Shown: piece after piece, positions 33,119 through 53,388 of the stretch
Position numbering within the stretch: position 1 is the first letter of the stretch
How the letters are laid out: every line of letters starts with the position of its first letter
Source: Thermodesulfobacteriota bacterium
GTDB lineage: Bacteria; Desulfobacterota; Desulfobacteria; Desulfobacterales; JARGFK01
NCBI GenBank assembly: GCA_040757625.1
Contig: JBFLWU010000007.1
Location: 1,110-65,109 of the forward strand
Length of the DNA stretch: 64,000 bases
Direction of reading: 5' to 3'
Notes under the pieces: generated by a model
The model's input: only the letters and a program-made list of their open reading frames with translations
Told to the model about the DNA's origin: nothing
The model's database searches: none
Translations under genes and position numbers: made by a program

Positions 33119-33325
33119 TATTGAACCGCAGAGACGCAAAGGTCGCCGAGTTTCTTATTGTTGCTTTTCGTTGAGAGGACGAAAAGCAAGCAGCTGAAAG
33201 CTCTTTTCATTGCCGGCCCCTCACCGGCAATGAAAATGAATCTTTCTTTGCGTTCTCTGCGTCTCGAGCGAAGCGGGCGGTGAACAAACCAAGGCGCCTC
33301 ACTTGTTACACCTGTCTCCCACCCT
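33119..33325 (+). repeat. RE-B element, long variant
   Basis: AACCGCAGAGACGCAAAGG, then hairpin TTGCTTTTCGT-TGAGAGG-ACGAAAAGCAA, the AGCTGAAAGC box and hairpin CATTGCCGG-CCCCTCA-CCGGCAATG. It ends with ...GCGTCTCGAGCGAAGCGGGCGGTGAA plus a CCTGTCTCCCACCCTTCC tail. Confidence 0.85.
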
Positions 33326-33338
33326 TCCAGCCTTAGCC

Positions 33339-34277
33339 TCAGCCTTGTTGGCCCCCAATCAGCGTTTCCAGGATGGCCTTGTGCATGTGCATCTTGTTTT
33401 CCGACTGGTCCCAGACAACCGAGGCCGGCCCCTCCAGGACCGAGTTGCTGATTTCTTCGCCGCGGTGCGCCGGAAGGCAGTGCATGACGATGGCCTCTTT
33501 GGGGGCTTTTTTCATGAGGGTGCTGTTGACCTGAAAGGCGCTGAAGGCGCGCTTGCGGGAAGCGGACTCGCTTTCCTTGCCCATGCTGGCCCAAACATCC
33601 GTATAGATCACGTCGGCATCCTTCACGGCCTTGACCGGATCGGAGATCACCCGGATCCGGCCGGTTTTAAGGGCCAGCGCCTTTTTCATGACGCTCTCGT
33701 CCGGATAGTACCCTTCCGGGCAGGCCAGGACCAGGTTCAGGTCCAGCACCGCCGCGGCGTTGATCCACGAGTGCGAGACATTGTTGCCGTCGCCGACCCA
33801 GACGAAGTTGATGCCGGCGTACCCTTTTTTATGTTCAATCACGGTCATCAGGTCGCTCAACACCTGACAGGGGTGATACATATCCGTCAGGGCGTTGATG
33901 ACCGGTATGGCGGAAAATTCGGCAAACTCCTGCAGCAGGTCCTGGGAATAGGTCCGGATCGCCAGGCAGTCCAGATATCGGGAAAGCACCCGGGCGGTGT
34001 CCCGCACCGGCTCGGCCCGGGCCATCTGGGTGTCCCTGGCGCTGATGAAAATCGAGCTGCCGCCCAGCTGGGCCATGGCCACTTCAAAGGACAGGCGCGT
34101 GCGGGTGGAGTGCTTGTCGAAGATGAGGCCGAGGGTTTTGCCTTTAAGGGGCATGTCCAGGCGCCCCTCCTTGTGATGCTTCTTTAATTCGGCCGCCCGT
34201 TTAAAGAGCCGATCGAAGTCTTTTTTTTCCAGATCCAGTAGGGTTAAAATGTCTTTTTTCAAAATCGCTTTCTCCAT
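33339..34277 (-). CDS. argF: ornithine carbamoyltransferase
   Basis: STRTRLSFE, HPCQ and HCLPA motifs. I prefer the ATG at 34277 (MEKAILKKDILTL), because the track start at 34319 is a TTG inside a repeat. Confidence 0.9.
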   Translation of the reverse strand: MEKAILKKDILTLLDLEKKDFDRLFKRAAELKKHHKEGRLDMPLKGKTLGLIFDKHSTRTRLSFEVAMAQLGGSSIFISARDTQMARAEPVRDTARVLSRYLDCLAIRTYSQDLLQEFAEFSAIPVINALTDMYHPCQVLSDLMTVIEHKKGYAGINFVWVGDGNNVSHSWINAAAVLDLNLVLACPEGYYPDESVMKKALALKTGRIRVISDPVKAVKDADVIYTDVWASMGKESESASRKRAFSAFQVNSTLMKKAPKEAIVMHCLPAHRGEEISNSVLEGPASVVWDQSENKMHMHKAILETLIGGQQG

Positions 34278-34290
34278 AAATGAAAAATAT

Positions 34291-34862
34291 ATTGCACCGC
34301 AAAGGCGCAAAGTTAGCAAAGATCATTTTCCTGTTGCTTTTCGCTGAGAAGGCGAAAAGCAATCGTCAACGCCCTTTCAGGGATATAAATTCCCACTGTC
34401 GAGCAAACACCCCTGATCAGAGAACGTGTTTGTTTAATAAAGCTGAAAGCTTTTTCCTTTGGCGTCCTCTCAACGGCAAAGGAAATTTCTTGGCGCCCTC
34501 AGCGTCTCGATCGCAGCGGGCGGTTGATTTCATGCTCTTCTTCAAAGCACTAGTTGGACCAGTATATCCATAGAACCGGCACCGCAAAGGCGCAAAGTTA
34601 GCAAAGATTATTTTCCTGTTGCTTTTCGCTGAGAAGGCGAAAAGCAAACGTCAACGCCCTTTCAGGGATATAAATTCCCACTGTCGAGCAAATGCACCTA
34701 ATACGAACATGTCCGTTTAATAAAGCTGAAAGCTTTTTCCTTTGGCGACCTCTCACCGGCAAAAGAAATTTCTTGGCGCCCTCTGCGTCCTGAGACTATC
34801 GAGCGGTTGATTTCATGCTCTTCTTCAAAACACCGGTTGGAACAGTATATCCATAGAACCGG
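34291..34862 (+). repeat. tandem duplication (periods 285 and 283 bp) of an expanded RE-B element
   Basis: CACCGCAAAGGCGCAAAGTT starts recur at 34295, 34580 and 34863. Each unit has hairpin TTGCTTTTCGC-TGAGAAG-GCGAAAAGCAA, a roughly 90-bp centre and a second hairpin of the type CCTTTGGCG(T)-CCTCTCA-(A)CGGCAAAGG. The array begins 14 nt upstream of the argF ATG. Confidence 0.9.
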
Positions 34863-35435
34863 CACCGCAAAGGCGCAAAGTTGGCAAAGATCATTTTCCT
34901 GTTGCTTTTCGCTGAGAAGGCGAAAAGCGAACATGATCACTTTATAACTTCAGAATCTTCAGGAAGTTCACGTACAACCCTAACGATTCCTTCCCGCATG
35001 AGCGCTACGTTAAAATTTAACAATAATCCCAACTGAAGACCGGACAATTTTAAATAGGTTAATAATTGGGCTTTATGAATCGGTTCGATTTCATTTACCG
35101 ATTTTAATTCAACAATTATTTGATCTTCAACAATGACATCCAACCGGTAACTACAGTCCAGTTTAATACCTTTATACTCAACAAATAACGGTTCCTGCCG
35201 TTTAAATTTTATACCCTTGAGGCTAAACTCACAGCAAAGACATTCCTCATACGTTGATTCAAGCAAACCGGGGCCAAGGTACTTATGAACTTCTATCGCC
35301 GACCCTATTATTTTATTGCTTAATTGATTGATATCCATTGTCAAGTCAATCGACAAGTTGAAAAGCTTTTTCCTTGACGGCCGCTCACCGTCAAGGAAAA
35401 AAATATTTCTCAGCGTCCTCGGCGCCTTTGCGGTG
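34863..35435 (+). mobile_element. RE-B element carrying a GxxExxY gene as cargo (candidate autonomous copy)
   Basis: Perfect 14-bp inverted termini, CACCGCAAAGGCGC (34863-34876) and GCGCCTTTGCGGTG (35422-35435). Hairpin 1 lies at 34904-34928. Hairpin 2, TTTTTCCTTGACGG-CCGCTCA-CCGTCAAGGAAAAA, lies at 35367-35401. Only the GxxExxY ORF lies between them. Mobility is an inference. Confidence 0.6.
34937..35356 (-). CDS. GxxExxY protein (PD-(D/E)XK nuclease-fold family)
   Basis: GLLESTY motif and [17 protein letters not shown] core. It is a paralogue of 3357-3740. The start is TTG 35356 or ATG 35338 (MDINQL). Confidence 0.85.
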
Positions 35436-35440
35436 AACCA

Positions 35441-36631
35441 TTATTTCATTTCGGAAAAAATGCCATCCAAACACTCCACCAGGGCGTCGACGGCGTCCTT
35501 CTCAATGATCAGCGGCGGAATGAACCGCAGGATCGTATCCTGAATGCAGTTGACCAGGAACCCTTTCTCCATGCACTTCGCGGCCACCGGGGCGCCGTCG
35601 ATCTTGAGCTTGATGCCCAGCAGCAGCCCCATCCCCCGTACATCCGCAATGACATCGTGTCGCTCCTTGAGGGTGTGGAGTTTTTCCTTGAAATAAACGC
35701 CCATCCGGGTGCAGTGCTCCAGGATTCCCTCCTCCGCAATGGTTTTGAGCACGGCCAGGGCCGCGGCCGTTACCAGGGGCGTGCCGCCGAACGTGGACGC
35801 GTGCGAACCCGGACCGAAGGCGGCCGCGACCGTTTCGGTGGCCAGCATGGCCCCGATGGGCAGGCCGTTGGCAAGGGCCTTGGCCAGGGTCATGATGTCC
35901 GGCCGAACCCCGAAATGTTCGTAGGCGAACAGCTTGCCGGTCCGCCCGATGCCGGTCTGGATCTCGTCGAAAATCAGGAGCGTGCCGGTCTCATCGCAGA
36001 GGCCGCGAACCGCCTTTAGATACTGCGGGTCCGGGCAGCGGATGCCGCCTTCGCCCTGGACCGGTTCGAGCATCACCGCGCAGGTGGTCGCGTCGACCCT
36101 GCTGCGCAGCGCCTCCAGATCATTGAACGGGACGAACTCAAACCCCTGCAGGACCGGATCGAAGCCCTTCTTGATCTTGTCCTGGCCCGTGGCCGACAGG
36201 GTCGCCATGGTGCGGCCGTGAAACGACTTTTCCATGGAAATGATGCGAAAGCGGTCGGCGGCGCCCTTTTCGCTGAAATACTTGCGGGCCAGTTTGATGG
36301 CCGCCTCGTTGGCCTCCGCCCCGCTGTTGCAGAAAAAGGCCCGGTCGGCGAAACTGTGCGCCGTCAGCCAGGAAGCCAGCTCCGTCTGGGGCCGGGTGTA
36401 GTAGAGGTTGGAGACGTGCCAGAGGATATCGGCCTGTCGGCAGAGCGCCTCGGCAATCCGCGGATGGGCATGGCCCAGATTGCACACGGCAATGCCGGAC
36501 ACAAAATCCGTATAGGCCTTGCCGGTTTCATCCCAGAGGGTGCATCCCCGCCCCCGCTCGAGGGCAATGGGGAAGCGTTTGTAGGTTTTGGCGATGACCG
36601 CGTCGGCGGTCTTGATGGTGTCTGTGTTCAT
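35441..36631 (-). CDS. argD: acetylornithine aminotransferase
   Basis: 396-aa class-III aminotransferase (FCNSGAEANEAAIKLAR, LIFDEIQTGIGRTG) in an arg gene context. Confidence 0.9.
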   Translation of the reverse strand: MNTDTIKTADAVIAKTYKRFPIALERGRGCTLWDETGKAYTDFVSGIAVCNLGHAHPRIAEALCRQADILWHVSNLYYTRPQTELASWLTAHSFADRAFFCNSGAEANEAAIKLARKYFSEKGAADRFRIISMEKSFHGRTMATLSATGQDKIKKGFDPVLQGFEFVPFNDLEALRSRVDATTCAVMLEPVQGEGGIRCPDPQYLKAVRGLCDETGTLLIFDEIQTGIGRTGKLFAYEHFGVRPDIMTLAKALANGLPIGAMLATETVAAAFGPGSHASTFGGTPLVTAAALAVLKTIAEEGILEHCTRMGVYFKEKLHTLKERHDVIADVRGMGLLLGIKLKIDGAPVAAKCMEKGFLVNCIQDTILRFIPPLIIEKDAVDALVECLDGIFSEMK

Positions 36632-36786
36632 TTTAATGCCTCATATTTTTCTGACAGGATTAACAGAAATGACTTGACGTTTCTGCCTGCCTGTTGTCCG
36701 CTTTGTTCAGGTATTCAGACTGAATTAAGTCCTGATCCCTTTTCTTTTTCCCTTCAGCCTATATCACTTCAGCCTTCGGTCTGCTG

Positions 36787-37662
36787 CTACCGCCGCACTT
36801 CCGTGCCGATGCCCTTGTCGGTAAAAAGCTCCAGCAGGAGCGCATGCCGCTTTTTGCCGTTGATGATGTGGACCTTTTCGACCCCGCATTTGACCGCTCC
36901 CAGGGCGCATTCAATTTTAGGAATCATCCCGCCGGTAATAATCGTTTTCCGGAGCATGTCTTCGGCGCCGGCGGCGTCCAGAGACGATATCAGCGCGCCT
37001 CCGGCGTCCAGGACGCCGTCCACATCCGTCATGAATATCAACCGGCCGGCGCTCAGGGACATGGCGATCCGGCTGGCCACCAGATCGGCGTTGATGTTAA
37101 AGGTTTCCCCGGCGCTGCCGGCGCCCACCGGTGCAATGATGGGAATGAATCCCTGCTGGGTCAGCGTATTGATGATCGCCGGGTTGACCTGGGTGACCTC
37201 GCCCACCAGCCCGGGATCGATAATTTCCGGCGGCTTGTCCTCTTCGGCCTGGTGGACGATATGCATCTTTTGGGCAAGGATCAGCCCCCCGTCCTTGCCG
37301 CTCAGGCCCACGGCCTTTCCGCCCTGCCGGTTGATCTGGGCCACGATGGCCTTGTTGATCTTGCCGCCCAGAACCATTTCCACCACGTCCATGGTGGGCT
37401 CGTCCGTGAGCCGCATGCCCCGCACGAATTTAGGGCTGATGCCCATCCGGTCCAGCACCTGGTTGATCTGGGGGCCGCCGCCATGAACCACCACGGGATT
37501 CAACCCGATGAATTTCATCAGGGTAACGTCCCGGGCAAAATCCTCCTTGAGCTGCTCGTCCACCATGGCATGCCCGCCGTATTTGATCACGATGGTCATG
37601 CCGGAAAAGCGGCGGATATACGGCAGCGCCTCGATGAGTATGTCGGCTACGTTGGGGGTCAT
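36787..37662 (-). CDS. argB: acetylglutamate kinase
   Basis: 291 aa with [20 protein letters not shown] and NINADLVA. Confidence 0.92.
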
Positions 37663-37747
37663 GTTTTTTCCTTAAAATACTGTCTGTCTTTTTACTGTTG
37701 CTGGTTGCTTATTCCCACCTCAAAACGTTGCGGTAACAAGAACGATT

Positions 37748-37863
37748 GGACCGCAGAGACGCAAAGGTCGCAGGGTTTCTTATGGTTGCTTTTCGTTGAG
37801 AGGACGAAAAGCAAGCAGCTGAAAGCCCTTTTCATTGCGTTCTCAGCGTCTTTGCGGTGAAAT
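37748..37863 (+). repeat. RE-B element, short copy lacking hairpin 2
   Basis: GACCGCAGAGACGCAAAGG, hairpin 1 and AGCTGAAAGCCCTTTTCATTGC, joined directly to GTTCTCAGCGTCTTTGCGGTGAA. It lies in the argB-hslU spacer. Confidence 0.85.
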
Positions 37864-37919
37864 TAACTTCAGCCTCAACCTTAACCTGTTCTTTCCTTGC
37901 TCCCCCGGCAACCGCTCCC

Positions 37920-39293
37920 TTACAATATATACCGGCTCAGGTCCTCGTCGTCCTTGATGTCCTTTAATTTAGCGTTCACATAGGCTGCGTCGATGACGAT
38001 TTTCTTTACGGCAATATCCGGCGCTTCGAACAGAATGTCCTCCAGCAGACACTCCATGATGGTGTGCAGCCGCCGCGCGCCGATATTTTCGGTGGCATTG
38101 TTGACCTCTTCGGCAATCGCCGCGATTTTTTCCACGGCGGCATCATCAAATTCCACATCGACGCCCTCGGTCCGGAGCAGCGCGATATACTGCAGCAGCA
38201 GCGCGTTTTTAGGTTCGGTCAAAATCCTGACAAAGTCCCGGCGGTCAAGGGAATCGAGCTCCACCCGAATGGGAAAGCGGCCCTGCAGCTCCGGTATCAG
38301 GTCCGAAGGCTTGGCGGCGTGAAAAGCGCCGGAAGCGATGAACAGGATGTGATCGGTCATGACCGGTCCGTACTTGGTGGTGACCGTGGAGCCTTCCACG
38401 ATGGGCAGCAGGTCCCGCTGGACCCCTTCGCGGGAAACGTCCGGGCCGTGCCCGCCGTTGCTGCCGGCGATCTTATCGATTTCATCCAGGAAGATGATCC
38501 CGGACTGCTCCACCTTTTCGATGGCCTGGCTGACGACCTTGTCCATGTCCACCAGGTTCTGGGATTCCTCCTGGGCCATGATCTCAAGGGCTTCGGGAAC
38601 CTTGACCTTGCGCTTCTTGGTGGTCTTGGGCATCAGGTTGCTGAACATGTCCTTGAAGTTGATCCCCATTTCCTCCATGCCGACATTTGAAAAAATTTCA
38701 ACCACCGGCATGGCCCGCTCGGACACTTCCAGGTCGACGTAGCGGTTCTCCAGTTTGCCGGCCCGCAGCATTTCACGCAGCTTTTCGCGGGTGGAGTGGG
38801 CGTCGTTTGGCGGCGGCAAGGCGGTTTCCACCGGCGTGCCGGCGGCTCCGTCCGGTTTGACCGCCCCGGCCGACGGCGTTTTGGGAAGCAGCAGGTCCAG
38901 CATTCTTTCCTCCGCAATCGTGCGGGCTTTGTCCTTGACCGCTTCCTGCTCCCTGGACTTGACCATGTTGACCGCCAGTTCAGTGAGGTCCCGGATCATG
39001 GATTCCACGTCGCGCCCCACATAGCCGACTTCGGTAAATTTTGAAGCTTCGATCTTGATAAAGGGCGCGTCCGCCAGGCGCGACAGGCGCCGGGAAATCT
39101 CGGTCTTGCCCACGCCGGTAGGGCCGATCAGGATAATGTTCTTGGGCGCAATTTCATCCCGCAGGTCCGGATCGACCTGCCGCCGGCGCCAGCGGTTGCG
39201 CAGCGCGATGGCAACCGAGCGTTTGGCCTTGTGCTGCCCGATGATATATTTGTCCAGTTCAATGACGATTTCAGATGGTTTCAGTTCGCTCAT
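37920..39293 (-). CDS. hslU: ATP-dependent protease ATPase subunit HslU
   Basis: 457 aa with [17 protein letters not shown], Walker [11 protein letters not shown] and [11 protein letters not shown]. Confidence 0.95.
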
Positions 39294-39357
39294 GATGTTC
39301 GCAGATCTTCACATATTATGGATTTGATGTTTCCTTATATTAAAAGCTTTTGGTTCC

Positions 39358-39513
39358 CACCGCAGAGGCGCAGAGGGCGCAAAGATTATTTTTTCTGTTG
39401 CCTTCTGCTGAGAGGCCGGAAGGCAAACAGGTAAAAGCTTTTTCATTGCCGGCCGCTCACCGGCAATGAAAAATACTATTTACCTCTGCGTTCTCAGCGC
39501 CTTTGCGGTTAAT
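39358..39513 (+). repeat. RE-B element
   Basis: CACCGCAGAGGCGCAGAGGGCGCAAAG, hairpin TTGCCTTC(T)G-CTGAGAGG-C(C)GGAAGGCAA and hairpin CATTGCCGG-CCGCTCA-CCGGCAATG, ending in CTCTGCGTTCTCAGCGCCTTTGCGGT. It lies in the hslU-hslV spacer. Confidence 0.85.
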
Positions 39514-39519
39514 CTTTCT

Positions 39520-40071
39520 CTACAGTTCCTCCACCGTAATCACATTGTTCGTATAGATGCACAGCGATGCCGCAATTTCCATGGCCTGGCGCGCAATATC
39601 GACCGCATCCAGGTCGGCGTATTTCATCAGGGCGGTTGCAGCGGCCTGGGCCGCCATGCCGCCCGAACCGATGGCGATGACATTTTCATCCGGTTCGATC
39701 ACATCGCCGTTGCCGGAAATCAAAAACGTGGCGGCGTGGTCCACGGCGATCATGATGGCCTCGAGCCGGCGCAGGTATTTGTCGGTGCGCCAGTCCCTGG
39801 CCAGCTCAACGGCGCTTCGGGTCAGGTTGCCGTTATAGCGCTCCAGCTTGGTTTCAAGGCGGTCAAAGAGATTGAGCGCGTCGGCGGTGGCCCCGGCAAA
39901 CCCCACGATTATTTTCTCGTTGTACAGCCGGCGGACTTTGCGGGCCTGATGTTTGATGACCGTGTTGTTGAGGGTCACCTGGCCGTCGCCGGCAACCACG
40001 ACCTTGCCCCGGTGCCGCAGCGCCAGGATCGTGGTGCCGTGAAAACTTGCATTATGTTGTTGGTTGCTCAT
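39520..40071 (-). CDS. hslV: ATP-dependent protease subunit HslV
   Basis: 183 aa with [10 protein letters not shown]...GDGQVT. It has a 12-residue extension before the TT catalytic position (see findings). Confidence 0.92.
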
Positions 40072-40127
40072 TATCTGAACCCCATAAGCAATTTTCGGAT
40101 CATGATTTTACAGTATATTACGTGTGC

Positions 40128-40412
40128 ATTTTGTCCGTTGTCTGTTGTACGCTGTCCATCGCCTCGCCGATCTCAAAAATAATTGAACCGCAGAGGCGCA
40201 AAGGTCGCCGAGTTTCTTCTTATGGTTGCTTTTCGTTGAGAGGACGAAAAGCAAGCAGCTGAAAGCCCTTTTCATTGCCGGCCTCTCACCGGCTATGAAA
40301 ATGAATCTTTCTTTGCGTTCTCTGCGTCTCGAGCGAAGCGGGCGGTGAACAAACCAAGGCGCCTCACTTGTCACACCTGTCTCCCGCCCTTCCCGCCTTA
40401 AGCCGTTAGCCT
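40128..40412 (+). repeat. RE-B element, long variant
   Basis: Near-identical to 53113-53388, including the left extension ...CGCCTCGCCGATCTCAAAAATAATTGAACC and the right tail ...CCTGTCTCCCGCCCTTCCCGCCTTAAGCCGTTAGCC. It lies in the hslV-xerC spacer. Confidence 0.85.
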
Positions 40413-40670
40413 TGCGCCGTGAGCCTTCTCTGCCTACTCCCTCCTTTTTCTCAACCTCAAAGCTGGCCTTTCGCCTTTTGCCGCTGATAAGCTGTTGAGC
40501 TGTTCAGGCTTGCAGGCTGAAGGCTGAAGGTTATATCAGTGCCGAGTGACAAAGAACAGAATATTTTGGAGAGATCTTAATATAAACTGTCCCTTGCCAT
40601 AGTCCTTGATCCCGTCTGTTGTTACCTTCAGTCTTTAGTCTATTTACCTTCAGCCTTTCTTTCCGATCCC

Positions 40671-41639
40671 TCACTTGCGCGGATGCGCCTTGTCGTATGT
40701 CTCCATCAGGCGATCGATGCTGACGTGCGTATATTTCTGGGTCGTGGACAGGCTCTTGTGTCCCAAGAGTTCCTGCACCACCCGCAAATCGGCGCCGGCA
40801 TCCAGCAGATGCGTCGCAAAGGAATGGCGCAGCGCGTGCGGCGACACCGGCGTGGCGATGCCGCACGCCAGCCCCGTTTTATCCAGTATCCGCGCAATGG
40901 ACCGGGCCGTCAGCCGGCCGAAGTTTTTATTCATGAACAGGGGGCCGTCATTTTTCAGGCGGCCTCTGCCGGACTTTGCGTTGGTTTCGGCGTCAAGCCG
41001 GTCCCGATAGGAGCGGATGGACGCCACGGCTTTTTGCCCGATGGGGACGATCCGCTCCTTGCTTCCCTTGCCCAAGACGCGAACGACACCCGCGCCGAAG
41101 TCCACGTCCGAAAGATTCATGCCGGCGATCTCCGAAACCCGCAGGCCGCATGAATAGAGCGTCTCAAAGATCGCGCGGTTTCTCAAGCCCAGGAGGCTCT
41201 TGGTATCAATGGAATCCAGCAGGCGGAACATATCGTCCACCGGCAGATACGTCGGTAGGGTTTTGTCCTGTTTCGGCGTCAGGATCGCATCAACCGGATT
41301 CTCCTGCAAGGCGCCGTGTTTGACAAGATACCTGAAAAATGATCGAACGGCCGACAGCTTGCGCGCCACCGTGGCTTTTTGATTTTTCTTATGCAAAATC
41401 CCCAGAAACTCCCTGATCATCAAGCCGTCCACCCGGCAGACGCTGACATTGCCCTCCGCTCCATTCGCATGTCCGTCCAGGTGGCGTTTTTCGGAAACAA
41501 AGGCCGAAAACTCCTCTAGGTCGCGCAGGTAGGCCCGGCAGGTGTTTTCTGAATAGGCTTTTTCCGTGGAAAGCGACTCGACAAAAGACCGAATCAATGT
41601 GTTCAGGTGAGTTGCGCTCATTCGAACCCCGATTGCCAA
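40671..41639 (-). CDS. xerC: tyrosine recombinase XerC/XerD
   Basis: GLRVSE (catalytic R), HALRHSFATHLL (HxxR) and LGHKSLSTTQKYTHV (Y). The xerC-hslV-hslU order is conserved. An alternative ATG lies at 41621. Confidence 0.85.
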   Translation of the reverse strand: MAIGVRMSATHLNTLIRSFVESLSTEKAYSENTCRAYLRDLEEFSAFVSEKRHLDGHANGAEGNVSVCRVDGLMIREFLGILHKKNQKATVARKLSAVRSFFRYLVKHGALQENPVDAILTPKQDKTLPTYLPVDDMFRLLDSIDTKSLLGLRNRAIFETLYSCGLRVSEIAGMNLSDVDFGAGVVRVLGKGSKERIVPIGQKAVASIRSYRDRLDAETNAKSGRGRLKNDGPLFMNKNFGRLTARSIARILDKTGLACGIATPVSPHALRHSFATHLLDAGADLRVVQELLGHKSLSTTQKYTHVSIDRLMETYDKAHPRK

Positions 41640-42212: not shown

Positions 42213-42431
42213 ATCCGGTTCCGTATCGGTTAAAATCTTTTCCTTAATTTACAGATAATAAGCTGTTAAACGATCAAGAACCGGCGCAAGATACTCGGCC
42301 CATGGCAGGCTAAGGTTCAGGTTAAGGTTTAGTCCCACTCTCAACCTCAACCTCAGCCTCAACTTTTTTTTCTGGCCCCCCGCTTTCTTTGCTGCCTACC
42401 GCTTATTGTCTACTGCTTAGTTTTCCCTGGC

Positions 42432-42610
42432 CGCGCCGATCTTAAAAATAATTGAACCGCAGAGGCGCAAAGGTCGCCGAGTTTCTTCTTATGGTTGCTT
42501 TTCGTTGAGAGGACGAAAAGCAAGCAGCTGAAAGCCCTTTTCATTGCCGGCCTCTCACCGGCAATGAAAATGAATCTTTCTTTGCGTTCTCAGCGTCTTT
42601 GCGGTGAAAT
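42432..42610 (+). repeat. RE-B element, canonical short form
   Basis: Terminus at 42456-42473, hairpin 1 at 42495-42523 (loop TGAGAGG), hairpin 2 at 42538-42570 (loop CCTCTCA), and right terminus ...GTTCTCAGCGTCTTTGCGGTGAA ending at 42608. Confidence 0.9.
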
Positions 42611-42691
42611 TAACCTCAGCCTTAACCTCAACCTTCTATTTCCTCACTCCCCGCTGCCCACCGCATAATTTTCCCTGGCTGCTGCTTTTGT

Positions 42692-43403: not shown

Positions 43404-43510
43404 GAGCTGATAAGCTGTTAAGCTGTTAAGCTTTCTCAACCTCAGCATCAACCTTTATTTATTTCTGCCTACTGCCTACTGCTTACTCCCTACTCCCCAC
43501 TTTTTCCCAA
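43404..43510 (+). repeat. RE-D word-mosaic repeat
   Basis: GAGCTGATAAGCTGTTAAGCTGTTAAGCTTTCTCAACCTCAGCATCAACCTTTATTTATTTCTGCCTACTGCCTACTGCTTACTCCCTACTCC... Partial copies start at about 46185 and 50281, and an inverted copy lies at 56361-56470. Confidence 0.8.
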
Positions 43511-43588
43511 CCTCAGCCTCAACCTTAACCTGCCGTAGGCCTTGGCCGTGCGCCGCTTATTTCAACCCGCAATCCGCAACCTGCTCCC

Positions 43589-45962: not shown

Positions 45963-46014
45963 GGGGTTACTATAAACCTTATTTGATTTTTCAGCAAACA
46001 ATATTCAGAGGGCA

Positions 46015-46358
46015 GGCATATAGACTGAAGACTGAAGACCGAAGACTGAAGGCTAAAGGCATACGACACACGGCACATAAAAGCTGTTGAGCTGATAAGC
46101 TGTTAAGTAAACGGCTAACGGCTCACGGCGCAGGGCGGACGGTAAAGAAACAGGGCTGAGGGCAAAGGACTGAATAACGAATAAGAGCTGATAAGCTGTT
46201 TAGCATTCTCAACCTCAACCTTTTTCTTCAGCCGCGCGCCGTTTGCCGTGTGCCGTTTATTTATTTATTTCTTAGCCTTAGCCTCACCCTTAACCTCATC
46301 CTTTTATTATTGCCGACTGTCTGCCAACCTTCAGCCTTCAGCCCATTTACCTTCGGCC
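46015..46358. repeat. word-array mosaic forming a ~330-bp imperfect palindrome
   Basis: The left side has CTGAAG x4, GGCTAAAGG and ACGGCTCACGGCGCAGGGC. The right side has GCGCGCCGTTTGCCGTGTGCCGT, CCTTAGCC x2 and CTTCAGCC x2, in nested inverted order around position ~46205. Confidence 0.7.
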
Positions 46359-47099
46359 TTTTTCCCCGCCCATTTCCCGCATCAGTTTCTGGACATCCTC
46401 CCACACGTCCCGTTTCCGCTCCGGGTTCCGCAGCAGAAAAGCGGGGTGATAGGTCGGCAGGACCCTGACACCGCGAAAGGAATAAAACTGGCCCCGCAGC
46501 TTTGAAATAGGAGCGTTGGTCGCCAGCAGGGTTTGCGCGGCAAAGGTCCCCAGGGCGCAAATAAACCCGGGATTGATGGCCGCGATCTGGCGCTCCAAAA
46601 ACGGCGAACAGGCCGCGATTTCATCCGGGGCCGGATTGCGGTTGCCCGGTGGGCGGCACTTGACGATGTTGCAGATATAAACCTCGTCACGGCTGAGCTT
46701 CATGGCCTGGATGATCTTGGTCAAGAGCTGCCCGGCGGCACCCACAAAAGGCTGTCCCTGCTGGTCTTCCTCGTAACCGGGTCCTTCGCCCACAAATACC
46801 AGCCGGGCCCGGGGATTTCCCGAACCGAACACGATATGGGTGCGGCCGGCCGCCAGCCCGCAGCGCCGGCAGTCCCCCAGGTCCGCGCGGATGTCCGCGA
46901 GGCTCTCGCTGCGCCCGCCCGACGGTTGGCCCCAGGCGGCGACGACAGCCAGGCTCCGGGGGTCGCAGTCAAAACCGCGGCAGCCGCAATCGGCCATAAA
47001 CCGGAGGGTGTCGCTGATCTGCGCCAGGACGGCCTGCAGGTTTTCTTTATCTGTGCCGGATTCTGAATCCATGTTTTTGTTTCGCTGTTTCTCAACCAT
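46347..47099 (-). CDS. uracil-DNA glycosylase, family 4
   Basis: [32 protein letters not shown] and [13 protein letters not shown]. Confidence 0.85.
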
Positions 47100-47136
47100 G
47101 CCGCCAAGCTCAAAGACGGGGCGGCTCGATATCTGT

Positions 47137-47365
47137 ATTCACCGCAAAGACGCTAAGCACGCAAAGATTGTTTACGGTTGCTTTCCGCTGAGACGCCGGA
47201 AAGCAACTGACAGTCATCCTCCGAAAATGCAGACTGCTTCCAACCGAAATCGATTTTCGTGGTTAACAAAGCTGAACGTTTTTCCTTTGCCGCTCTCTCA
47301 ACGGCAAAGGAAATGAACATCCTTTTCTCTGCGACCTTTGCGCCTTGAGCTAAGCGGGCGGTGGG
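47137..47365 (+). repeat. RE-B element, expanded-centre variant
   Basis: TTCACCGCAAAGACGCTAAGCACGCAAAG, hairpin GTTGCTTTCCG-CTGAGACGC-CGGAAAGCAAC, a roughly 80-bp centre and hairpin TTTTTCCTTTGCCG-CTCTCTCA-ACGGCAAAGGAAA. It ends with ...CCTTTGCGCCTTGAGCTAAGCGGGCGGTG. It lies in the UDG-coaBC spacer. Confidence 0.8.
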
Positions 47366-47457
47366 TTTTTCGCATCTGTTCACAGCCAATCTATATCGGA
47401 TTGTCCCAACGCAATCGGTAGGGGCTAAGCGCTCACATACGATAATTTCAGGGAGTG

Positions 47458-48657
47458 TCAGAAAAAACGCTCCTTGATCCGGTCCAGCAGAATCCCGGCA
47501 ACCGATTCCTTTTCCATGACGTCAAGGGCTTCCGCGCTGCCGTCCTTAAAAAACAGGGTGACCTGGTTGGTATCGGACGCAAATCCGGAATCGGGTTTTC
47601 CCACCAGATTGCCCACGATGATATCGCAGTTTTTTTCTTTCAGTTTTTTTGCGGCATTCTTTTTAAGGTCTTCGGTTTCGGCCGCAAAGCCGATCAGAAC
47701 CTGCTTCTTTTTCCTTTTTCCCAGAGCGCCGAGAATGTCCTGGTTTTTTTTAAGGGTCAGCTGCAATTCTTCCTTGTCTTTTTTGATCTTGCTCGCCGCG
47801 GTCTCCAGGGGCCTGTAATCGGAAACAGCCGCCGCCTTGACGACGATGTCCATGCGGTCCGAACGCTCAAAAACCGCCGCTGCCATTTGGGCCGCCGATC
47901 GGACCCGGACCGTCGCGATGCCGGGAGGATCCGGCAAATGGGACGGTCCGCTGACAAGGGTCACCTCGGCCCCGCGCTGTTCGGCGGCCCGGGCGACGGC
48001 GTATCCCATTTTCCCCGAAGACGGGTTGCTGATAAACCGGACCGGGTCCATGGCCTCGTGGGTGGGTCCGGCGGTCACCAGCACCCGTTTTCCCTGAAAA
48101 TCCTTGGGCGTCAGGCCGCTGATCAGCCGGTCGAGAATCAGTTCCGGATCCGGCAGCCGCCCGGGTCCGGTGGTGCCGCAGGCCAGCTGTCCGCTGGACG
48201 GTTCCATAATGGTGTATCCCATCCCGGTGAGCCGTTCCAGGTTTGTCTGGACCGGCCGGCTTTCATACATATGCGTGTTCATGGACGGGCAGACAAAGAC
48301 CGGCGCCGTCACGGCCAGCATCAGGGTGCTGAGGGCATCGTCGGCAATGCCGTTGGCAAGCTTGGCGATGATATTGGCGGTTGCCGGCGCGATGACAACG
48401 GCATCCGCTTCCCGCGCCCAGTCGATGTGCCGGATGGAAGCATCCCCACCCCCATCAAACAGGTCGGTACAGACGGGCTGACCGGACAATGTTTTAAACG
48501 TGAGCGGCCCGACAAACCACTGGGCGTTGCGGGTCATCACCACCCGCACGGCCGCCCCCGCACCGGTCAGCAGCCGCAGCAACTCCACGCTCTTGTAAGC
48601 TGCGATCCCGCCGGAAACACCCAGAATGATCATTTTATTTTTAATTACGGTCTGCAT
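47458..48657 (-). CDS. coaBC: bifunctional phosphopantothenoylcysteine decarboxylase / phosphopantothenate-cysteine ligase
   Basis: 399 aa with [29 protein letters not shown] and [11 protein letters not shown]. Confidence 0.92.
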
Positions 48658-48796
48658 CGGAACACCGTCTCTTTTTATTTAACGCTTTGATTAAAGCCAT
48701 CCCGGCCCCGAGAACCAAGCCCAGAGAACATGATTTAAACAAACGCAATCGGCAAAATACGAAACCCGAAAATCGAAATTCGGAACAAATGGGCAC

Positions 48797-48905
48797 TGTC
48801 AGATAGGCACACTGTTTGGATCATTTGAATTTTGGCCGTTCGGCATTGTTTCGGATCTGCGGCTATCACCTCTTGAAAAAAAAGGGGTTGGTGCTTCGCA
48901 TTTAA
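48797..48905 (+). repeat. RE-C repeat, copy 2
   Basis: TGTCAG...TTTGGATCATTTGAATTTTGGCCGTTCGGCATTGTTTCGGATCTGCGGCTATCACC..TTGAAAAAAAAGGGG. It lies in the spacer upstream of coaBC. Confidence 0.75.
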
Positions 48906-48954
48906 CCTATATATAAGACAGAGCTTCCGAACGCTGCCCCATCCCGGGCTTTCC

Positions 48955-49458
48955 TTATTTCAACAGGCCGCTGCTGCCGACGCCGGTTCCCTTTCCGGTC
49001 GCACCTTCCATGGCGGTGGGAGAAACCCATATTTCCGCATAGGTCGTGAAATCTCCTTCCGTGATATTGATCGCACACCAGCGGTTTTCCTTGTTGAACA
49101 GCATCAGCGTCCGGCGGGATTTAAAATAACTGATCAGCTTCCAGTTATCCTTGCTCATGTTGTTGTAAAAAAAATCGATAAGGGAATTGACCTCCACCCT
49201 TCCGGTCAATGCCAGCACGCCGGCTGAATATCCCGGCGTCCGGAACACGAAAGAGGCGTCCTTATCAACTTTTAATTCGCTGGGCACCAGGACGTCGCCG
49301 AAATCATAGTACAGCGGCACCGGCCCATTGTCTTTCTGGGCGGATGGAGCGGACCCTTCCCCTTTAATCTTGGAACCGGCACAGCCTCCGATGACCAGCG
49401 CCATCACCGCCACCCCAATCCCCATCCATCGCCAATATTTGCGCCCTACTGGTTTCAT
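48955..49458 (-). CDS. lipoprotein of unknown function
   Basis: The preferred start MKPVGRKYWRWMGIGVAVMALVIGGCAGS gives a signal peptide plus lipobox. No family is assigned. Confidence 0.55.
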   Translation of the reverse strand: MKPVGRKYWRWMGIGVAVMALVIGGCAGSKIKGEGSAPSAQKDNGPVPLYYDFGDVLVPSELKVDKDASFVFRTPGYSAGVLALTGRVEVNSLIDFFYNNMSKDNWKLISYFKSRRTLMLFNKENRWCAINITEGDFTTYAEIWVSPTAMEGATGKGTGVGSSGLLK

Positions 49459-49560
49459 AATGCGTCCTCCTTCCGCAGGCCCCGATGGCAAAACCAAGGT
49501 CTCATGGCATGCCATCGCTAGGATTATCAACTATCCGGTAACACACAATAATTGTTTTAA

Positions 49561-49857
49561 TCATACACGCTTTTTGATCGGGTTTAAAGTTGTATTTTGG
49601 AGTTTTTTTAATTTTTGCAGATTGCGGTACTTCAGCAGAAGGCGCAGCCACGTTTCGAATAAAGCCGAAATATCCCGGGTGCGTGCGTTTTTTTCCGCTT
49701 CAAGTTTTTGCTCCACGTCACGCAGGGCTGCCTTGAAATCCAGCCGATCGGGCTCCCGTTCAATCAGGTGCCGGTAAATCCGGGCGGATTTTTCGAAATA
49801 CCCCTGGTCGGCATAAACTTTTGCCATGGTAGCGGTATAAAATGCGGTTTCATTCAT
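49561..49857 (-). CDS. small TPR-like protein
   Basis: 98 aa. AKVYADQGYFEKSARIYRHLIEREP is a single TPR-like unit. It overlaps the ftsB-like gene by 8 nt. Confidence 0.45.
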   Translation of the reverse strand: MNETAFYTATMAKVYADQGYFEKSARIYRHLIEREPDRLDFKAALRDVEQKLEAEKNARTRDISALFETWLRLLLKYRNLQKLKKLQNTTLNPIKKRV

Positions 49858-50158
49858 CCTTTTTGTCCTTTTCAGGCTTCTTTAGCTTGATAACGACCTC
49901 GTCTTTTCCCACCATTCCGAGTTCCTGGCGGGCGACGCTCTCGATAAATTTAAGATCGTTTTTCAACCGGTCGATCTGGCGGTACAGCGAAAGGTTTTCC
50001 TGCTCCAGCTGAGCATTTTTCTGCAGCAGCTGGTCACGCTCCTGCCTGAGCAGGCGCAGATCGGCCAGCCCGTATTCGTTAAACACGATAAACAGCAGCA
50101 GCGAAAACAGCGCCAGGATGGCCAATGACATTAAAATTTTATTGCGTGTATTCATCAA
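49850..50158 (-). CDS. ftsB: septum formation initiator (FtsB/DivIC family)
   Basis: 102 aa with an N-terminal TM helix plus a coiled coil (LRQERDQLLQKNAQLEQENLSLYRQIDRLKND...IESVARQELGM). Confidence 0.7.
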   Translation of the reverse strand: MMNTRNKILMSLAILALFSLLLFIVFNEYGLADLRLLRQERDQLLQKNAQLEQENLSLYRQIDRLKNDLKFIESVARQELGMVGKDEVVIKLKKPEKDKKDE

Positions 50159-50224
50159 TGTTACCGCCCGCTACGTCTCACCTGAGTCCTGACAACGGAC
50201 CGCGGACAATTAAACTTTAAAAAC

Positions 50225-50355
50225 GGCATACAACGCACGGCCGGTAAAGGTTGAGGTTAAGGTTAAGGTTAAGAAGCCGTTGAGCTGATAAGCTGTTAAG
50301 CTTTCTCAACCTCGGCCTCATCCTTAACCTCATCCTTTTATTATTGCCTACTGCT
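50225..50355 (+). repeat. word-array / RE-D partial copy
   Basis: AAGGTTGAGGTTAAGGTTAAGGTTAAG, then TTGAGCTGATAAGCTGTTAAGCTTTCTCAACCTCGGCCTCATCCTTAACCTCATCC...TGCCTACTGCTTAC. It abuts the murJ stop codon. Confidence 0.75.
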
Positions 50356-51965
50356 TACTTTCTTCCTACTTCTGTCTCCTGCTCCCCGTCCCCTGCTCCC
50401 TTTTTAGCGAAACGTTTTCCCAGCAGCGACAAGACCATTTCAAGTTCCGGAACCCGGGCCAGGTAGGAGAAAACGCCGTAGCTGACCAGGCCGGCGCCGA
50501 TGGTGACCACCAGGCCCGACAACAGGCGCAGGGCGCTGATATTTCCGCCCGGAATGGCCGCCAGCGCCACGCCCCAGACCGCCACCCCCATGGCCGCCGA
50601 ACATACGACGGTCTTGAGTATGGAATCCCGGGCGACTTCCCATCCCAGGCTCCCCAACCGGGCCCGCAAGACTTTGAGCAGGAGCACGAGATTTACCATG
50701 GCGGCCAGGGATGTCGCCAGGGCCAGGCCGCCATGCCGGAGCCACTGCATTAAAATAACGCTCAGGGCAACGTTGGCAGCCAGAGAAATTGCCGCCATGC
50801 GCACCGGCGTTTTGGTGTCCTTGAGGGCGTAAAAGGTGGACACCACGATTCTGACGGCTGAAATTGCCCATAACCCCACAGCATAATACAAAAGCGCCAT
50901 GGCCGTCATCCGGACGGTCTCCGCGTTAAACGCCCCCCGCTGAAACAGGAGGGCAACAATCGGCTGCCGCAGAACGATCAGGCCGACCATGGCCGGTATC
51001 GTGATATAGGATACCAGGTTCATGGCATATACAAAGGTGGTCCGCAGCGCCGCAAAATCCCGGGCGGCCGCCTGGCGCGAGAGGCTTGGTAAAACCGCCG
51101 TAGCCGTAGCGATGGCAAAAATACCCAGGGGAAATTCAACCAGCCGATCGGCATAATACAGATAGGAGACGCTCCCCTCTGGCAGCAGGGACGCCAGCAG
51201 GGTGCCGATCAGGATGTTGATCTGATAGACCGCAGCCCCGAAAACGGTGGGCAGCATCAACACGCCCACCTGCTTGAGCCCGGGATGATAGAAGCCGGCC
51301 TTTTGCCAGAAACGCAGCCCGTTGCGGATCAGAAACGGAACCTGCAGCAGCAGCTGCAGGGCGCCGCCGATGAGCACACCCACAGCAAGCCCGATGATCG
51401 GCTCGTCAAGATGGGGTGAAATCAGAAAGACCGACCCGATCATGGCGATATTTAAAAAAACCGGCGCCAGGGCCGGCGCGGCAAAGTGGCCGAGCACATT
51501 CAGGATGCCCATGGACAGGGCCACCAGCCCGATGAAAAAAATATACGGAAACATGATCCGGGTCAGGGTCACCGTGAGGGCCAGCTTTTCCGGCGATTCC
51601 GCGAACCCGACCCCGACGATACGGACGATCAGCGGGGACAGCAGGATCCCCAGAACGGCAACCACGGCCAGCAAAACGGAAATCAGCCGCAGCGCCGCCC
51701 GGGCCAGCAGGAAGGCTTCTTCTTTGCCGTTGCGGGCGAGATGGTCCGTAAAAACCGGAATAAAGGCGATGCTTAAGGAACCCTCGGCCAGGAGGCGCCG
51801 GAGCAGATTGGGTATGCGGAATGCCACAAAAAAGGCATCGGACGCCAGCCCGGCGCCGAAAAACCAGGCGACCACCACATCCCGGATAAAACCGAAAATC
51901 CGGCTGAGTAATGTGGCGCCCGCGACAACACCGGCAGCCTTGGTTACACGGATATTTTCAGACAT
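50355..51965 (-). CDS. murJ: lipid II flippase MurJ
   Basis: About 536 aa with LSRIFGFIRDVVVAWFFGAG...DAFFVAFRIPNLLRRLLAEG. I prefer the ATG at 51965. Confidence 0.9.
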   Translation of the reverse strand: MSENIRVTKAAGVVAGATLLSRIFGFIRDVVVAWFFGAGLASDAFFVAFRIPNLLRRLLAEGSLSIAFIPVFTDHLARNGKEEAFLLARAALRLISVLLAVVAVLGILLSPLIVRIVGVGFAESPEKLALTVTLTRIMFPYIFFIGLVALSMGILNVLGHFAAPALAPVFLNIAMIGSVFLISPHLDEPIIGLAVGVLIGGALQLLLQVPFLIRNGLRFWQKAGFYHPGLKQVGVLMLPTVFGAAVYQINILIGTLLASLLPEGSVSYLYYADRLVEFPLGIFAIATATAVLPSLSRQAAARDFAALRTTFVYAMNLVSYITIPAMVGLIVLRQPIVALLFQRGAFNAETVRMTAMALLYYAVGLWAISAVRIVVSTFYALKDTKTPVRMAAISLAANVALSVILMQWLRHGGLALATSLAAMVNLVLLLKVLRARLGSLGWEVARDSILKTVVCSAAMGVAVWGVALAAIPGGNISALRLLSGLVVTIGAGLVSYGVFSYLARVPELEMVLSLLGKRFAKKGAGDGEQETEVGRK

Positions 51966-52230
51966 AGCGATCCACAACGGTTATCCTACCGTTGATTCGG
52001 TTGAATTTCCAAAAACGCGTGAATTTAAGACATCCGTCACTTGGCGCACGGCTAACGGTGCAGGGCGCACAGGAACGACCCGTCCGCCTTTCCCAGAGCC
52101 GTAAGCCGCTTGCCTTATCCCGATTGCCCCCGACACCCTAATCTCAAAATATTCCTTGACATCGAAACCATAATAATTTAGTTAAAAAAATTCTGAAAAC
52201 ACATATTAACTATTTAAGGAGTTATCACCA

Positions 52231-52500
52231 TTGGCAAACCATAAATCCGAAATCAAACGTGCGCGTCAGAATGCCGATCGGCATGATCGTAACAAGGCGG
52301 TCAAAACCGGCGTCAAAAACATCACCAAAGCGGTTCGCCAGGCGGCTGCCGAGAAGTCTAAGGAAGAAGCGATCAAAGAACTGAACGCTGCAAAATCAAT
52401 CATCGACAAGGCGTCCAAGAAAAAGGTCATCCCCAAAAAAACGGCTGCCCGCAAAATTTCCCGCCTTGCCAAACGCGTCAACCGCATGACGACCAGCTAA
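52231..52500 (+). CDS. rpsT: 30S ribosomal protein S20
   Basis: 89 aa (ANHKSEIKRARQN...). TTG start with AAGGAG at 52216-52221. The 3' end overlaps lptE tail-to-tail by 4 nt. Confidence 0.92.
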   Translation: MANHKSEIKRARQNADRHDRNKAVKTGVKNITKAVRQAAAEKSKEEAIKELNAAKSIIDKASKKKVIPKKTAARKISRLAKRVNRMTTS

Positions 52501-53015
52501 AAATCCTCGGTCAACCGATAATAAATATTTTCAGCCAGCCGCTTGGAAAGCGCCGATACGGCTGCGCGTCTGTTGACGTCCGTCGCCTGGCTGTCGGACG
52601 CGACCCGATAGCTTTCACTGTCGGCGAGTCCCTGCAAAGACCACACCGCCCTGCCGTTCCGATCGGTCAGCTTCAAATCAACTGAGATGGTTACCCGTCT
52701 TTCCAGGGAGCTGTGCTGCCCGCTGCGCGATATGGTTTCCACCCGCAGTGATTTGACCGTACCGGAAAGAACGGCGTCGGCATCTTCGGGGGTCGCGCTG
52801 CGGTTATAGCGGATGAACTCATACCGGAGGTCGCCGGTGAGTGTGTTTTCCAAACCGGTTTCGGACGTGCGGTTGTCGAGCTGATGGATGAAAACCCGCT
52901 GGATTCCGGCGGGGAGACTCCCGCTGCCTGAAAAACGATAGCCGCAGCTCGATAAGAGCATGACGGCCGCCGCCAGTGCCCAGCTGATCCATCTGTTCTG
53001 AAAGCAATTAAACAT
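52497..53015 (-). CDS. lptE: LPS-assembly lipoprotein LptE
   Basis: 172 aa with lipobox LLSSCGYRF. It sits in the conserved position downstream of leuS. Confidence 0.7.
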   Translation of the reverse strand: MFNCFQNRWISWALAAAVMLLSSCGYRFSGSGSLPAGIQRVFIHQLDNRTSETGLENTLTGDLRYEFIRYNRSATPEDADAVLSGTVKSLRVETISRSGQHSSLERRVTISVDLKLTDRNGRAVWSLQGLADSESYRVASDSQATDVNRRAAVSALSKRLAENIYYRLTEDF

Positions 53016-53112
53016 AATTAAAACGCCTCTTTCGAAGGGGCCAGGGTTCAGGTTTCAGGGATCAGCTTTGAATGATTCGCTCACCGTTGTCCCTTTGTCG
53101 AGGCATCCTGTC

Positions 53113-53388
53113 GGTTACTTGTTGTCCGTTGTTCATTGCCTCGCCGATCTCAAAAATAATTGAACCGCAGAGGCGCAAAGGTCGCCGAGTTTCTTATGGT
53201 TGCTTTTCGTTGAGAGGACGAAAAGCAAGCAGCTGAAAGCCCTTTTCATTGCCGGCCTCTCACCGGCGATGAAAATAAATCTTTCTTTGCGTTCTCTGCG
53301 TCTCAAGCGAAGCGGGCGGTGAACAAACCAAGGCGCCTCACTTGTCACACCTGTCTTCCGCCCTTCCCGCATTAAGCCGTCAGCCTTT
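53113..53388 (+). repeat. RE-B element, long variant
   Basis: See 40128-40412. It lies in the leuS-lptE spacer. Confidence 0.85.

Follow-up and report, generated by a model that had tools for sequence, protein, structure and literature searches.

The repeat element RE-B was found in the spacers between housekeeping genes of a 64,000-nt stretch of DNA (the window) from a Thermodesulfobacteriota bacterium, an uncultured relative of sulfate reducers (assembly GCA_040757625.1, contig JBFLWU010000007.1), and all copies were shown to point the same way relative to the adjacent genes. Nearly all independent loci with the element in other metagenomes follow the same polarity; the rule is real and general, although not absolute. 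It is best explained by the orientation of a promoter-less cargo gene carried by the full form of the element, since the polarity coincides with the sense orientation of this gene, which is a simpler cause than selection at the RNA level. We give about an even chance to the explanation that RE-B is the gene-less form of a selfish cassette resembling the intervening sequences (IVSs) of 23S rRNA, and that its polarity derives from the sense orientation of the cargo and from purging of opposite insertions, not from a host signal.

RE-B resembles a miniature inverted-repeat transposable element (MITE) of 112–230 nt (574 nt with cargo), and its short form measures 152–163 nt. The terminal inverted repeats (TIRs) are approximately 26 nt long and each consists of three CGCAGAGG-like 8-mers. 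In the short form, the left repeat (TIR-L; ACCGCAGAGGCGCAAAGGTCGCCGAG, three 8-mers) is followed by hairpin 1 (GTTGCTTTTCG, loop TGAGAGG, CGAAAAGCAAC), a linker of 11 nt, hairpin 2 (CATTGCCGG, loop CCTCTCA, CCGGCAATG) and the right repeat (TIR-R, ending in CTTTGCGGTGAA). The reference copy (42456..42608, plus strand), which has AGCTGAAAGCC as linker, contains TIR-L at 42456-42481, hairpin 1 at 42495-42523 (loop 42506-42512), hairpin 2 at 42538-42570 (loop 42551-42557) and TIR-R at 42578-42608. An extended TIR (CGAGCGAAGCGGGCGG) is present at either end, depending on the subfamily. The two ends are equivalent in a two-fold manner, as a TIR and then a TGAGAGG-loop hairpin are met inward from each end on its own strand; TGAGAGG is read from the plus strand in hairpin 1 and again, 45 nt further on, from the minus strand in hairpin 2, and RE-B is 67% identical to its own reverse complement. 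Among the hairpins of the window and related loci, which were preselected for pairing of the inner 9 pairs, 28 different stems share one loop, and compensatory changes were found in 12 of the 13 stem pairs.

The two loops within one element are exact complements, UGAGAGG/CCUCUCA in RE-B and GGGAGAU/AUCUCCC in the sister family RE-A (3790-3796 and 3939-3945). A 7-bp kissing interaction between such loops is possible, and their sequences are similar to the cores of Shine-Dalgarno and anti-Shine-Dalgarno sequences.

Ten RE-B copies, three of them in a tandem array, were located in the eight spacers that an earlier sequence-only reading of the window had listed, with at least one copy in every spacer. 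The flanking-gene identities given in that reading were confirmed by profile searches of the window proteins, and all genes bordering RE-B are on the minus strand. They belong to a minus-strand housekeeping run at 33–56 kb, which comprises argF, argD, argB, hslU, hslV and the genes for a XerC/D-family recombinase and an NT5C/HAD nucleotidase, followed by those for a small Rho_N-like protein, a Band-7 protein, NfeD and a family 4 uracil-DNA glycosylase (UDG), by coaBC, and by an FtsB-like protein gene, murJ, lptE and leuS. The named spacers measure 518, approximately 1160, 257, 226, 599, 479, 358 and 598 nt (range 226–1163 nt). The adjoining plus-strand gene block (56.7–64 kb) contains no RE-B copy, as had been stated.

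All copies are given on the plus strand. Besides the reference copy, which lies between the NT5C/HAD gene and the small Rho_N-like gene, short forms were found downstream of argF (33125..33284, with an extended right end, ...CTCGAGCGAAGCGGGCGGTGAA), in the xerC/hslV spacer (40187..40349, with TIR-L beginning 115 nt upstream of hslV) and in the leuS/lptE spacer (53164..53323). The hslU/hslV spacer contains a short form of a separate subfamily (39359..39512; hairpin 1 stem GCCTTCTG/CCGGAAGGC), which begins 7 nt past the hslV stop codon and ends 65 nt ahead of the hslU start codon, and the hslU/argB spacer a short form from which hairpin 2 is deleted (37750..37861). A divergent long form (47138..47364), for which the orientation call is the weakest, lies in the coaBC/UDG spacer. 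The argD/argF spacer is filled by the tandem array of three units with a period of 283–285 nt, which are two long forms (34296..34527 and 34581..34810) and a copy with cargo (34864..35437; TIR-L and hairpin 1 at 34864-34930, hairpin 2 and TIR-R at 35361-35437). This array begins 3 nt past the argD stop codon and ends 18 nt ahead of the argF start codon; RE-B copies abut stop and start codons within co-directional gene clusters.

Some copies have more than the element in common. Copies 40187 and 53164 are alike over approximately 60 nt to the left and approximately 50 nt to the right of the element; the left flank is common also to copy 42456 and the right flank to copy 33125. The left module (GTCCGTTGTC...AAAAATAATTGA; 40126..40186, plus strand, also 42395-42455 and 53103-53163) was found only with RE-B in the window, and the right module (CAAACCAAGGCGCCTCACTTGT...; 40350..40400, plus strand, also 33285-33335 and 53324-53374) only adjoining RE-B. 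These shared mosaic flanks point to gene-conversion tracts. Ten window copies and ten from other genomes were compared, and no direct repeat indicating a target-site duplication was common to their flanks; nor was an empty target site found for exact comparison, the flank modules occurring only attached to RE-B.

A repeat-family comparison showed all RE-B copies of the window to be direct repeats of one another. In nhmmer searches they scored 104–181 bits in the forward and 17–52 bits in the reverse direction, except for the divergent copy 47138 (38 + 32 bits forward, 39 bits reverse). The sequence-only reading had claimed the same polarity at all eight loci, and full-length comparison upholds this; the TGAGAGG loop by which it judged the orientation does not hold as a criterion, because the loop of hairpin 2, CCTCTCA, is its reverse complement and the loop is therefore blind to orientation. 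The orientation can be called from the differing stems and the linker. The accompanying chance estimate of approximately 0.8% (2 x 0.5^8) is invalid as computed and overstates the case on window evidence alone, because shared flanks make the loci non-independent and all copies lie in one co-directional block. Two sister families show a single direction in the window as well: all RE-A copies are direct repeats among minus-strand genes, and the plus strand of RE-C modules is rich in pyrimidines where the genes are on the minus strand, the modules being inverted exactly where the genes turn to the plus strand (56.3–56.5 kb and 58.9–59.2 kb), that is, they keep one polarity relative to transcription.

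For a comparison with other genomes and metagenomes, from which contigs and loci are given L-numbers here, public collections were searched on both strands for the hairpin 1 pattern and the flanking genes were checked by Pfam. The pattern was found at one locus among genome contigs and at 13 loci among metagenome contigs. With the hairpin 1 stem GTTGCTTTTCG as marker, 8–9 independent loci of other metagenomes were concordant, i.e., hairpin 1 lies at the downstream side of the adjacent gene, and one was discordant. Concordant elements were found between a NiFeSe hydrogenase gene and HycI (L002), between an epimerase gene and a HAD gene with cargo between them (L004), in the same direction as the neighbours in L006, as two elements in L007, between Nuo51-like and Fer2 genes (L013b), 20 nt past a DUF294 gene (the L001/L009/L013a group), 40 nt past a histidine kinase gene of a convergent pair (L012), 17 nt before kdtA (L003/L011), and in the spacers that contain copies 37750 and 47138 in the window (L008 and L015, respectively). 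The concordant copies in L002, L013b, the L001 group, L012, the L003 group, L008 and L015 are gene-less. The discordant element (L010) is located 24 nt upstream of the start codon of a radical-SAM gene, and the DNA beyond it is apparently non-coding and maybe untranscribed. Orientation calls made by nhmmer for the distant members L028 and L029 were rejected as unreliable.

These loci bear on the proposal that the polarity follows no biological rule, the window copies being local duplicates of composite blocks whose orientation was retained and the agreement elsewhere being due to chance or sampling. The flanks that copies have in common beyond the TIRs, the position of all window copies in one 20-kb co-directional block, and the fact that approximately 70% of adjacent gene pairs are co-directional anyway would all fit such a proposal. 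We nevertheless hold it to be very unlikely, as at least three RE-B subfamilies and the separate RE-A family share one direction, the independent loci of other organisms agree with one exception, and all cargo genes examined have the same direction as the genes on either side.

The cargo of array unit 3 is a gene for a 133-aa GxxExxY protein (TIGR04256; PF13366, PDDEXK_3) located between hairpins 1 and 2 (34937..35338, minus strand). The gene reads in the same direction as argD and argF, with its 3′ end adjoining hairpin 1, and has no promoter of its own. The protein scored 153 bits for TIGR04256 (cut-off 35) and 148 bits for PF13366 (cut-off 22) and was 100% identical to the catalogued protein P0121. 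Columns E27/Y30/E31, D67 and E77-L78-K79, which correspond to PD-(D/E)XK residues, were invariant in 35 sequences. An AlphaFold2 model (mean predicted local distance difference test, pLDDT, 83.6) matched solely PD-(D/E)XK nucleases, and these weakly (Cas4 SSO0001, lambda exonuclease and Hjc); no sequence match was found among solved structures. The layout with the gene inside the element was also found in metagenome loci L004 and L007, and GxxExxY genes were co-oriented with both neighbours at every independent locus examined (two window genes, L004, L006, L007 and three loci in polysaccharide clusters).

The typical setting of GxxExxY and IVP genes in other genomes is a polysaccharide cluster (L004, L007, L020-L029). 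Most of the approximately 8000 close GxxExxY homologues lie on contigs of 0.5–3 kb, which is consistent with multi-copy cassettes breaking metagenome assemblies.

Comparison with relatives at orthologous sites showed that the content of the spacers changes readily. Three contigs with HslU 92% identical to that of the window (L015, L017 and L019) have the same gene order, and RE-B was found only in their coaBC/UDG spacer. Their spacers contain other elements of the same TIR type with different interiors, here called RE-D (approximately 270 nt; L015 8602-8983, 9533-10000, 12632-12952 and 15584-15909; L019 11375-11752 and 14166-14438). RE-D elements have the same ACCGCAAAGGCGCAAAGG TIR and a hairpin CTTCCGGATCG...CGATCCGGAAG, are all in one orientation, and resemble in part of their interior (AACGCCCTnnnnGGG) the linker of the window long-form RE-B. 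The argD/argF spacer of L015 contains a 23S_rRNA_IVP gene with AGCTGTTG-repeat arms. In a relative with 85% HslU identity (L016) the spacers measure 74–285 nt and contain no RE-B, and in one with 79% identity (L008) a complete RE-B lies in the hslU/argB spacer, where window copy 37750 is found. The presence of elements among relatives is a matter of turnover, not conservation.

In the xerC/hslV spacer of both the window and L015, TIR-L begins 115–116 nt upstream of hslV; the two sequences can be aligned through the TIR, and the interiors then differ. The pattern suggests that a cassette was exchanged at a resident site, and such an exchange of interiors at a fixed TIR position would also suit an integron-like system in which the elements are recombination sites and a tyrosine recombinase swaps interiors at folded palindromes in a fixed orientation. 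Small promoter-less genes co-oriented with their neighbours, imperfect palindromes flanking small genes, and a tyrosine recombinase gene within the block are compatible with this idea. However, the recombinase (40671-41639) scored 329.5 bits for XerC and 304.7 bits for XerD compared to 131 bits for integron integrase (cut-off 265), it lies in the usual xerC-hslVU arrangement common to relatives, and the elements, in contrast to integron cassettes, are dispersed, with no array beside an integrase and no adjacent integron integrase. We regard an integron-like cassette system as extremely improbable.

The window and the 92% relatives have in common a conserved segment of approximately 65 nt directly upstream of hslU (39294-39358; L015 9533-9600, reverse). 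A sigma-70-like match, TTAATA-17-CATAAT, lies within it (minus strand, 39343-39315), and hslU may have its own promoter downstream of the inserted element.

According to the explanation that we favour, the full cassette would be a promoter-less GxxExxY gene with PD-(D/E)XK fold between two equivalent ends, and the RE-B short forms would be its gene-less version. Host RNA polymerase would read through the elements, and the terminal repeats would pair into a stem of 17–26 bp, a possible substrate of RNase III. The polarity would be set by the promoter-less cargo, for which the sense orientation is required or with which it is tolerated, and gene-less descendants would retain this polarity; gene conversion among resident copies would homogenise them, which may explain the near-identical short forms and the mosaic flanks. 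Insertions that place hairpin 2 and a T-rich tract in the path of the polymerase transcribing the operon would presumably be purged. The short form departs clearly from two-fold symmetry in one respect only: its antisense strand is T-rich in both inner flanks, with 5–7 T in the 12 nt after hairpin 2, compared to 1–3 T after the last hairpin on the sense strand. This terminator-like, non-canonical feature could make the opposite orientation polar, and thus subject to purging. Co-transcription of the elements is naturally expected from the co-directional gene clusters and the lack of canonical terminators, and processing of RE-B by RNase III is plausible.

Several points weigh against this explanation. 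The census is based on 14 loci only, from the genome and metagenome scans, and the directions of transcription and replication are confounded in almost all of them (GC skew could not separate the two). Co-transcription and RNase III cleavage are both steps that we infer, and the mosaic flanks are the one line of evidence pointing to gene conversion. Five near-identical short forms have one internal junction, which suggests that they spread as short forms; transposition with symmetric ends would be expected to give random orientation, and a legacy of the cargo would then be insufficient by itself. No trace of GxxExxY was detected by tblastn (E<=1) in the linkers of gene-less long forms, so decay of the cargo in situ is not supported. 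The T-tract asymmetry is modest, and 4–6 T follow hairpin 2' on the sense strand as well; a terminator scan of the RE-B copies revealed no canonical terminator on either strand. The sequence-only reading had likewise seen none; its statement stands with the caveat that the scan flagged hairpin 2 of copy 39359 on both strands. Only copies 39359 and 35367 passed the consensus scan, and the idea that the hairpins act as terminators was rejected on account of this number and of the modest T-tract asymmetry.

The same reading had tentatively attributed the polarity to selection at the RNA level, that is, the host would have taken over the elements as intercistronic signals in RNA, for processing by RNase III, for 3′-end stabilisation or for decoupling of cistrons, and selection on the RNA would keep the orientation. 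The elements do lie inside operons and their RNA is strongly structured, with a Y-shaped fold on either strand that includes a predicted terminal stem of approximately 17–26 bp (z = -5.4 to -7.7). Compensatory changes keep the hairpins intact, one spacer contains RE-B both in the window and in the 79% relative, and there are precedents in Correia elements cut by RNase III and in orientation-dependent effects of ERIC. Folding energy favours neither strand consistently: recent copies fold better antisense, and older or diverged copies better in sense (by 9–22 kcal/mol in seven), the latter being in line with a host signal and the former not. Against such a signal, the RNA is nearly alike in both orientations because of the two-fold equivalence of the ends, and wobble pairs in the stems show no strand preference (86 G.T forward compared to 91 A.C, the latter being G.U on the gene-sense RNA). 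Hairpin 2 appears dispensable, as it is deleted in copy 37750; the 92% relatives hold other elements in the same spacers, and the 85% relative has short spacers without them. Finally, no Rfam match was obtained for RE-B at gathering thresholds or at E<=1. Selection at the RNA level was thus not borne out by the two-fold symmetric RNA, the lack of G.U asymmetry, the turnover and the loss of hairpin 2, and we judge a recruited host signal to be unlikely.

Another proposed cause of the polarity is strand-specific insertion linked to replication, in which single-stranded hairpin ends would be used on the lagging-strand template as in IS200/IS605 and REP/RAYT, genes and elements sharing the direction of the replichore. 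The sub-terminal hairpins with conserved loops would suit such a process, GC skew was negative on the forward-element strand in the window and at most loci, and most flanking genes are probably co-directional with replication. RE-B nevertheless differs from IS200/IS605 in having TIRs and in showing the same order of hairpins and loops on both strands, which offers no obvious strand discrimination. In L012 it is aligned with the neighbouring gene on the minus strand, although the plus strand carries 9 of the 13 ORFs, and RE-C flips with gene strand in the window with no sign of a replichore switch; in both cases the polarity goes with the gene and not with the majority strand. No Y1 transposase was noticed, nor any RAYT-like ORF in the window or the comparison loci. 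Replication-linked insertion is therefore considered distinctly improbable, and the orientation of a promoter-less cargo is retained as the preferred cause.

RE-B is a new family within a widespread TIR superfamily that includes 23S_rRNA_IVP cassettes. These can be regarded as the equivalent, in operon spacers, of 23S rRNA IVSs, and the coding members of the superfamily have the IVS design of small promoter-less genes placed in sense within host transcription units. The sister family RE-A (2894-5219 and 31780-32276) has TIRs ACCACAGAGGCACAGAGG and loops GGGAGAT/ATCTCCC. A second GxxExxY gene (3357-3740, minus strand) is associated with RE-A, where it lies between a TIR-R and the next TIR-L and not inside one element, and a fragment of its 3′ end is duplicated at 3105-3248. 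A 23S_rRNA_IVP gene (PF05635; 166-540, minus strand) was found outside any rRNA, flanked by arms at 74-127 and 564-646 that are inverted and composed of AAGGTTGAGGCTAAG/CTTAGCCTTAACCTT hexamer repeats (AACCTY-repeat). Fragments of these arms, RE-C, fill most of the other spacers of the window; the modules at 43404-43560, 46163-46320 and 50254-50353, compared to the inverted ones at 56357-56511 and 58960-59170, consist of AGCTGTTAAGC octamers, AACCTC hexamers and GCCGTG heptamers. The comparison of RE-B with IVS-like elements in the sequence-only reading thus proved apt, as GxxExxY is carried by the full form and PF05635 by sister elements nearby. A low-GC (0.34–0.45) polysaccharide-biosynthesis island (6000-31000) separates the RE-A from the RE-B clusters and contains no copy of either.

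The TIR pattern CACCGCARAGRCGCARAGR was also present on 88 IMG/VR contigs (L031-L110), where it bounds 20 distinct elements of 61–415 nt with unrelated interiors (e.g., L065 1368-1533, L078 3236-3298 and L040 7862-7976). One of these element families has TGAGAGG/CCTCTCA hairpins. The hairpin 1 pattern was absent from the IMG/VR contigs, and the TIR-bounded elements there contained neither GxxExxY nor IVP genes. A literature search on the TIR sequences and family accessions revealed no description of these TIRs and no link of GxxExxY or PF05635 to such repeats.

A broader reading, which we put forward tentatively and think rather unlikely, is that RE-B and its relatives form one undescribed class of transcript-parasitic cassettes of which the 23S rRNA IVSs are merely the best-known case. 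Such a class would be characterised by TIRs of tandem 6-8-mers, hairpins with conserved loops, and a small gene for a PD-(D/E)XK or four-helix-bundle protein. The cassettes would insert in sense into any well-transcribed unit, RNase III would cut the TIR stem and free a stem-capped cargo mRNA, and the GxxExxY nuclease would recognise the TGAGAGG-loop hairpins at both ends and drive cassette exchange between resident sites.

RE-B is not a member of any named family. It is of the palindromic intergenic-repeat kind and functionally nearest to Correia/NEMIS, ERIC and IVS elements. As to bacterial MITEs, RE-B has the short, multi-copy, TIR-bounded form, and neither a target duplication nor a transposase-encoding parent was found: no transposase lies inside any TIR pair, and the coding forms found carry only GxxExxY (PF13366) or, in sister families, PF05635. 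Correia/NEMIS elements of Neisseria are similar in size (100–160 nt, and a longer variant with an internal insert), in their TIRs of approximately 24–26 nt and in their many dispersed copies near genes, and their transcripts form long stem-loops that are proposed or shown to be RNase III substrates (PMC2229807; PMC3049150). RE-B differs from them in that no TA duplication was seen, in its TIRs of three tandem octamers, in its two sub-terminal hairpins with conserved complementary loops, in a coding relative with a PD-(D/E)XK-fold gene instead of a transposase gene, and in its strong polarity relative to genes. ERIC/IRU elements of enterobacteria are also imperfect palindromes and are co-transcribed inside operons, as is expected of RE-B, with orientation-dependent effects described, whereas they have 7-bp TIRs, no form with cargo and no sequence relationship to RE-B. 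REP/BIME elements likewise form mosaics of hairpin units and short motifs in extragenic DNA, and some act as attenuators or mRNA stabilisers (PMC3049150); in RE-B it is the loop that is conserved and not a head, no GTAG-type head was seen, and long TIRs and a protein-coding full form are present.

The 23S rRNA IVSs of Leptospira and Coxiella consist of a terminal stem of approximately 28 bp around a small S23p/PF05635 ORF, are excised by RNase III, and are transcribed in sense within the host transcript; they are sporadic, move horizontally and are regarded as selfish (PMC4990558). RE-B resembles them in its complementary termini and predicted stem of 17–26 bp. PF05635 genes with analogous inverted arms are present at window position 166-540 and in the L015 argD/argF spacer. 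In contrast to IVSs, RE-B lies between protein-coding genes and not in helix 9, 25 or 45 of 23S rRNA (no rRNA was found in the window), its cargo is PF13366 and not PF05635, and gene-less copies are abundant. The origin of IVSs is still unclear, and the origin, mobility and function of IVSs and their ORFs have been open since approximately 1990 (PMC4990558). The locus described here shows an IVS-type cassette, with both ORF families, in ordinary operons, where it leaves gene-less derivatives and is turned over at 8% HslU difference. The presence of filled, exchanged and short spacers at orthologous sites allows comparisons that make this a tractable system for the study of cassette movement, and testable hypotheses are raised on recognition of TGAGAGG-loop hairpins by the GxxExxY nuclease and on orientation-dependent cassette polarity in operons. 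The long intergenic regions in these metagenome-assembled genomes of Desulfobacterales are repeat fill and not regulatory DNA, and the repeats probably break assemblies.

A gene of the RNase E/G family (PF10150; 56683-58149, plus strand) adjoins the repeat-rich block across the divergent spacer that contains inverted RE-C; this position is probably coincidental.

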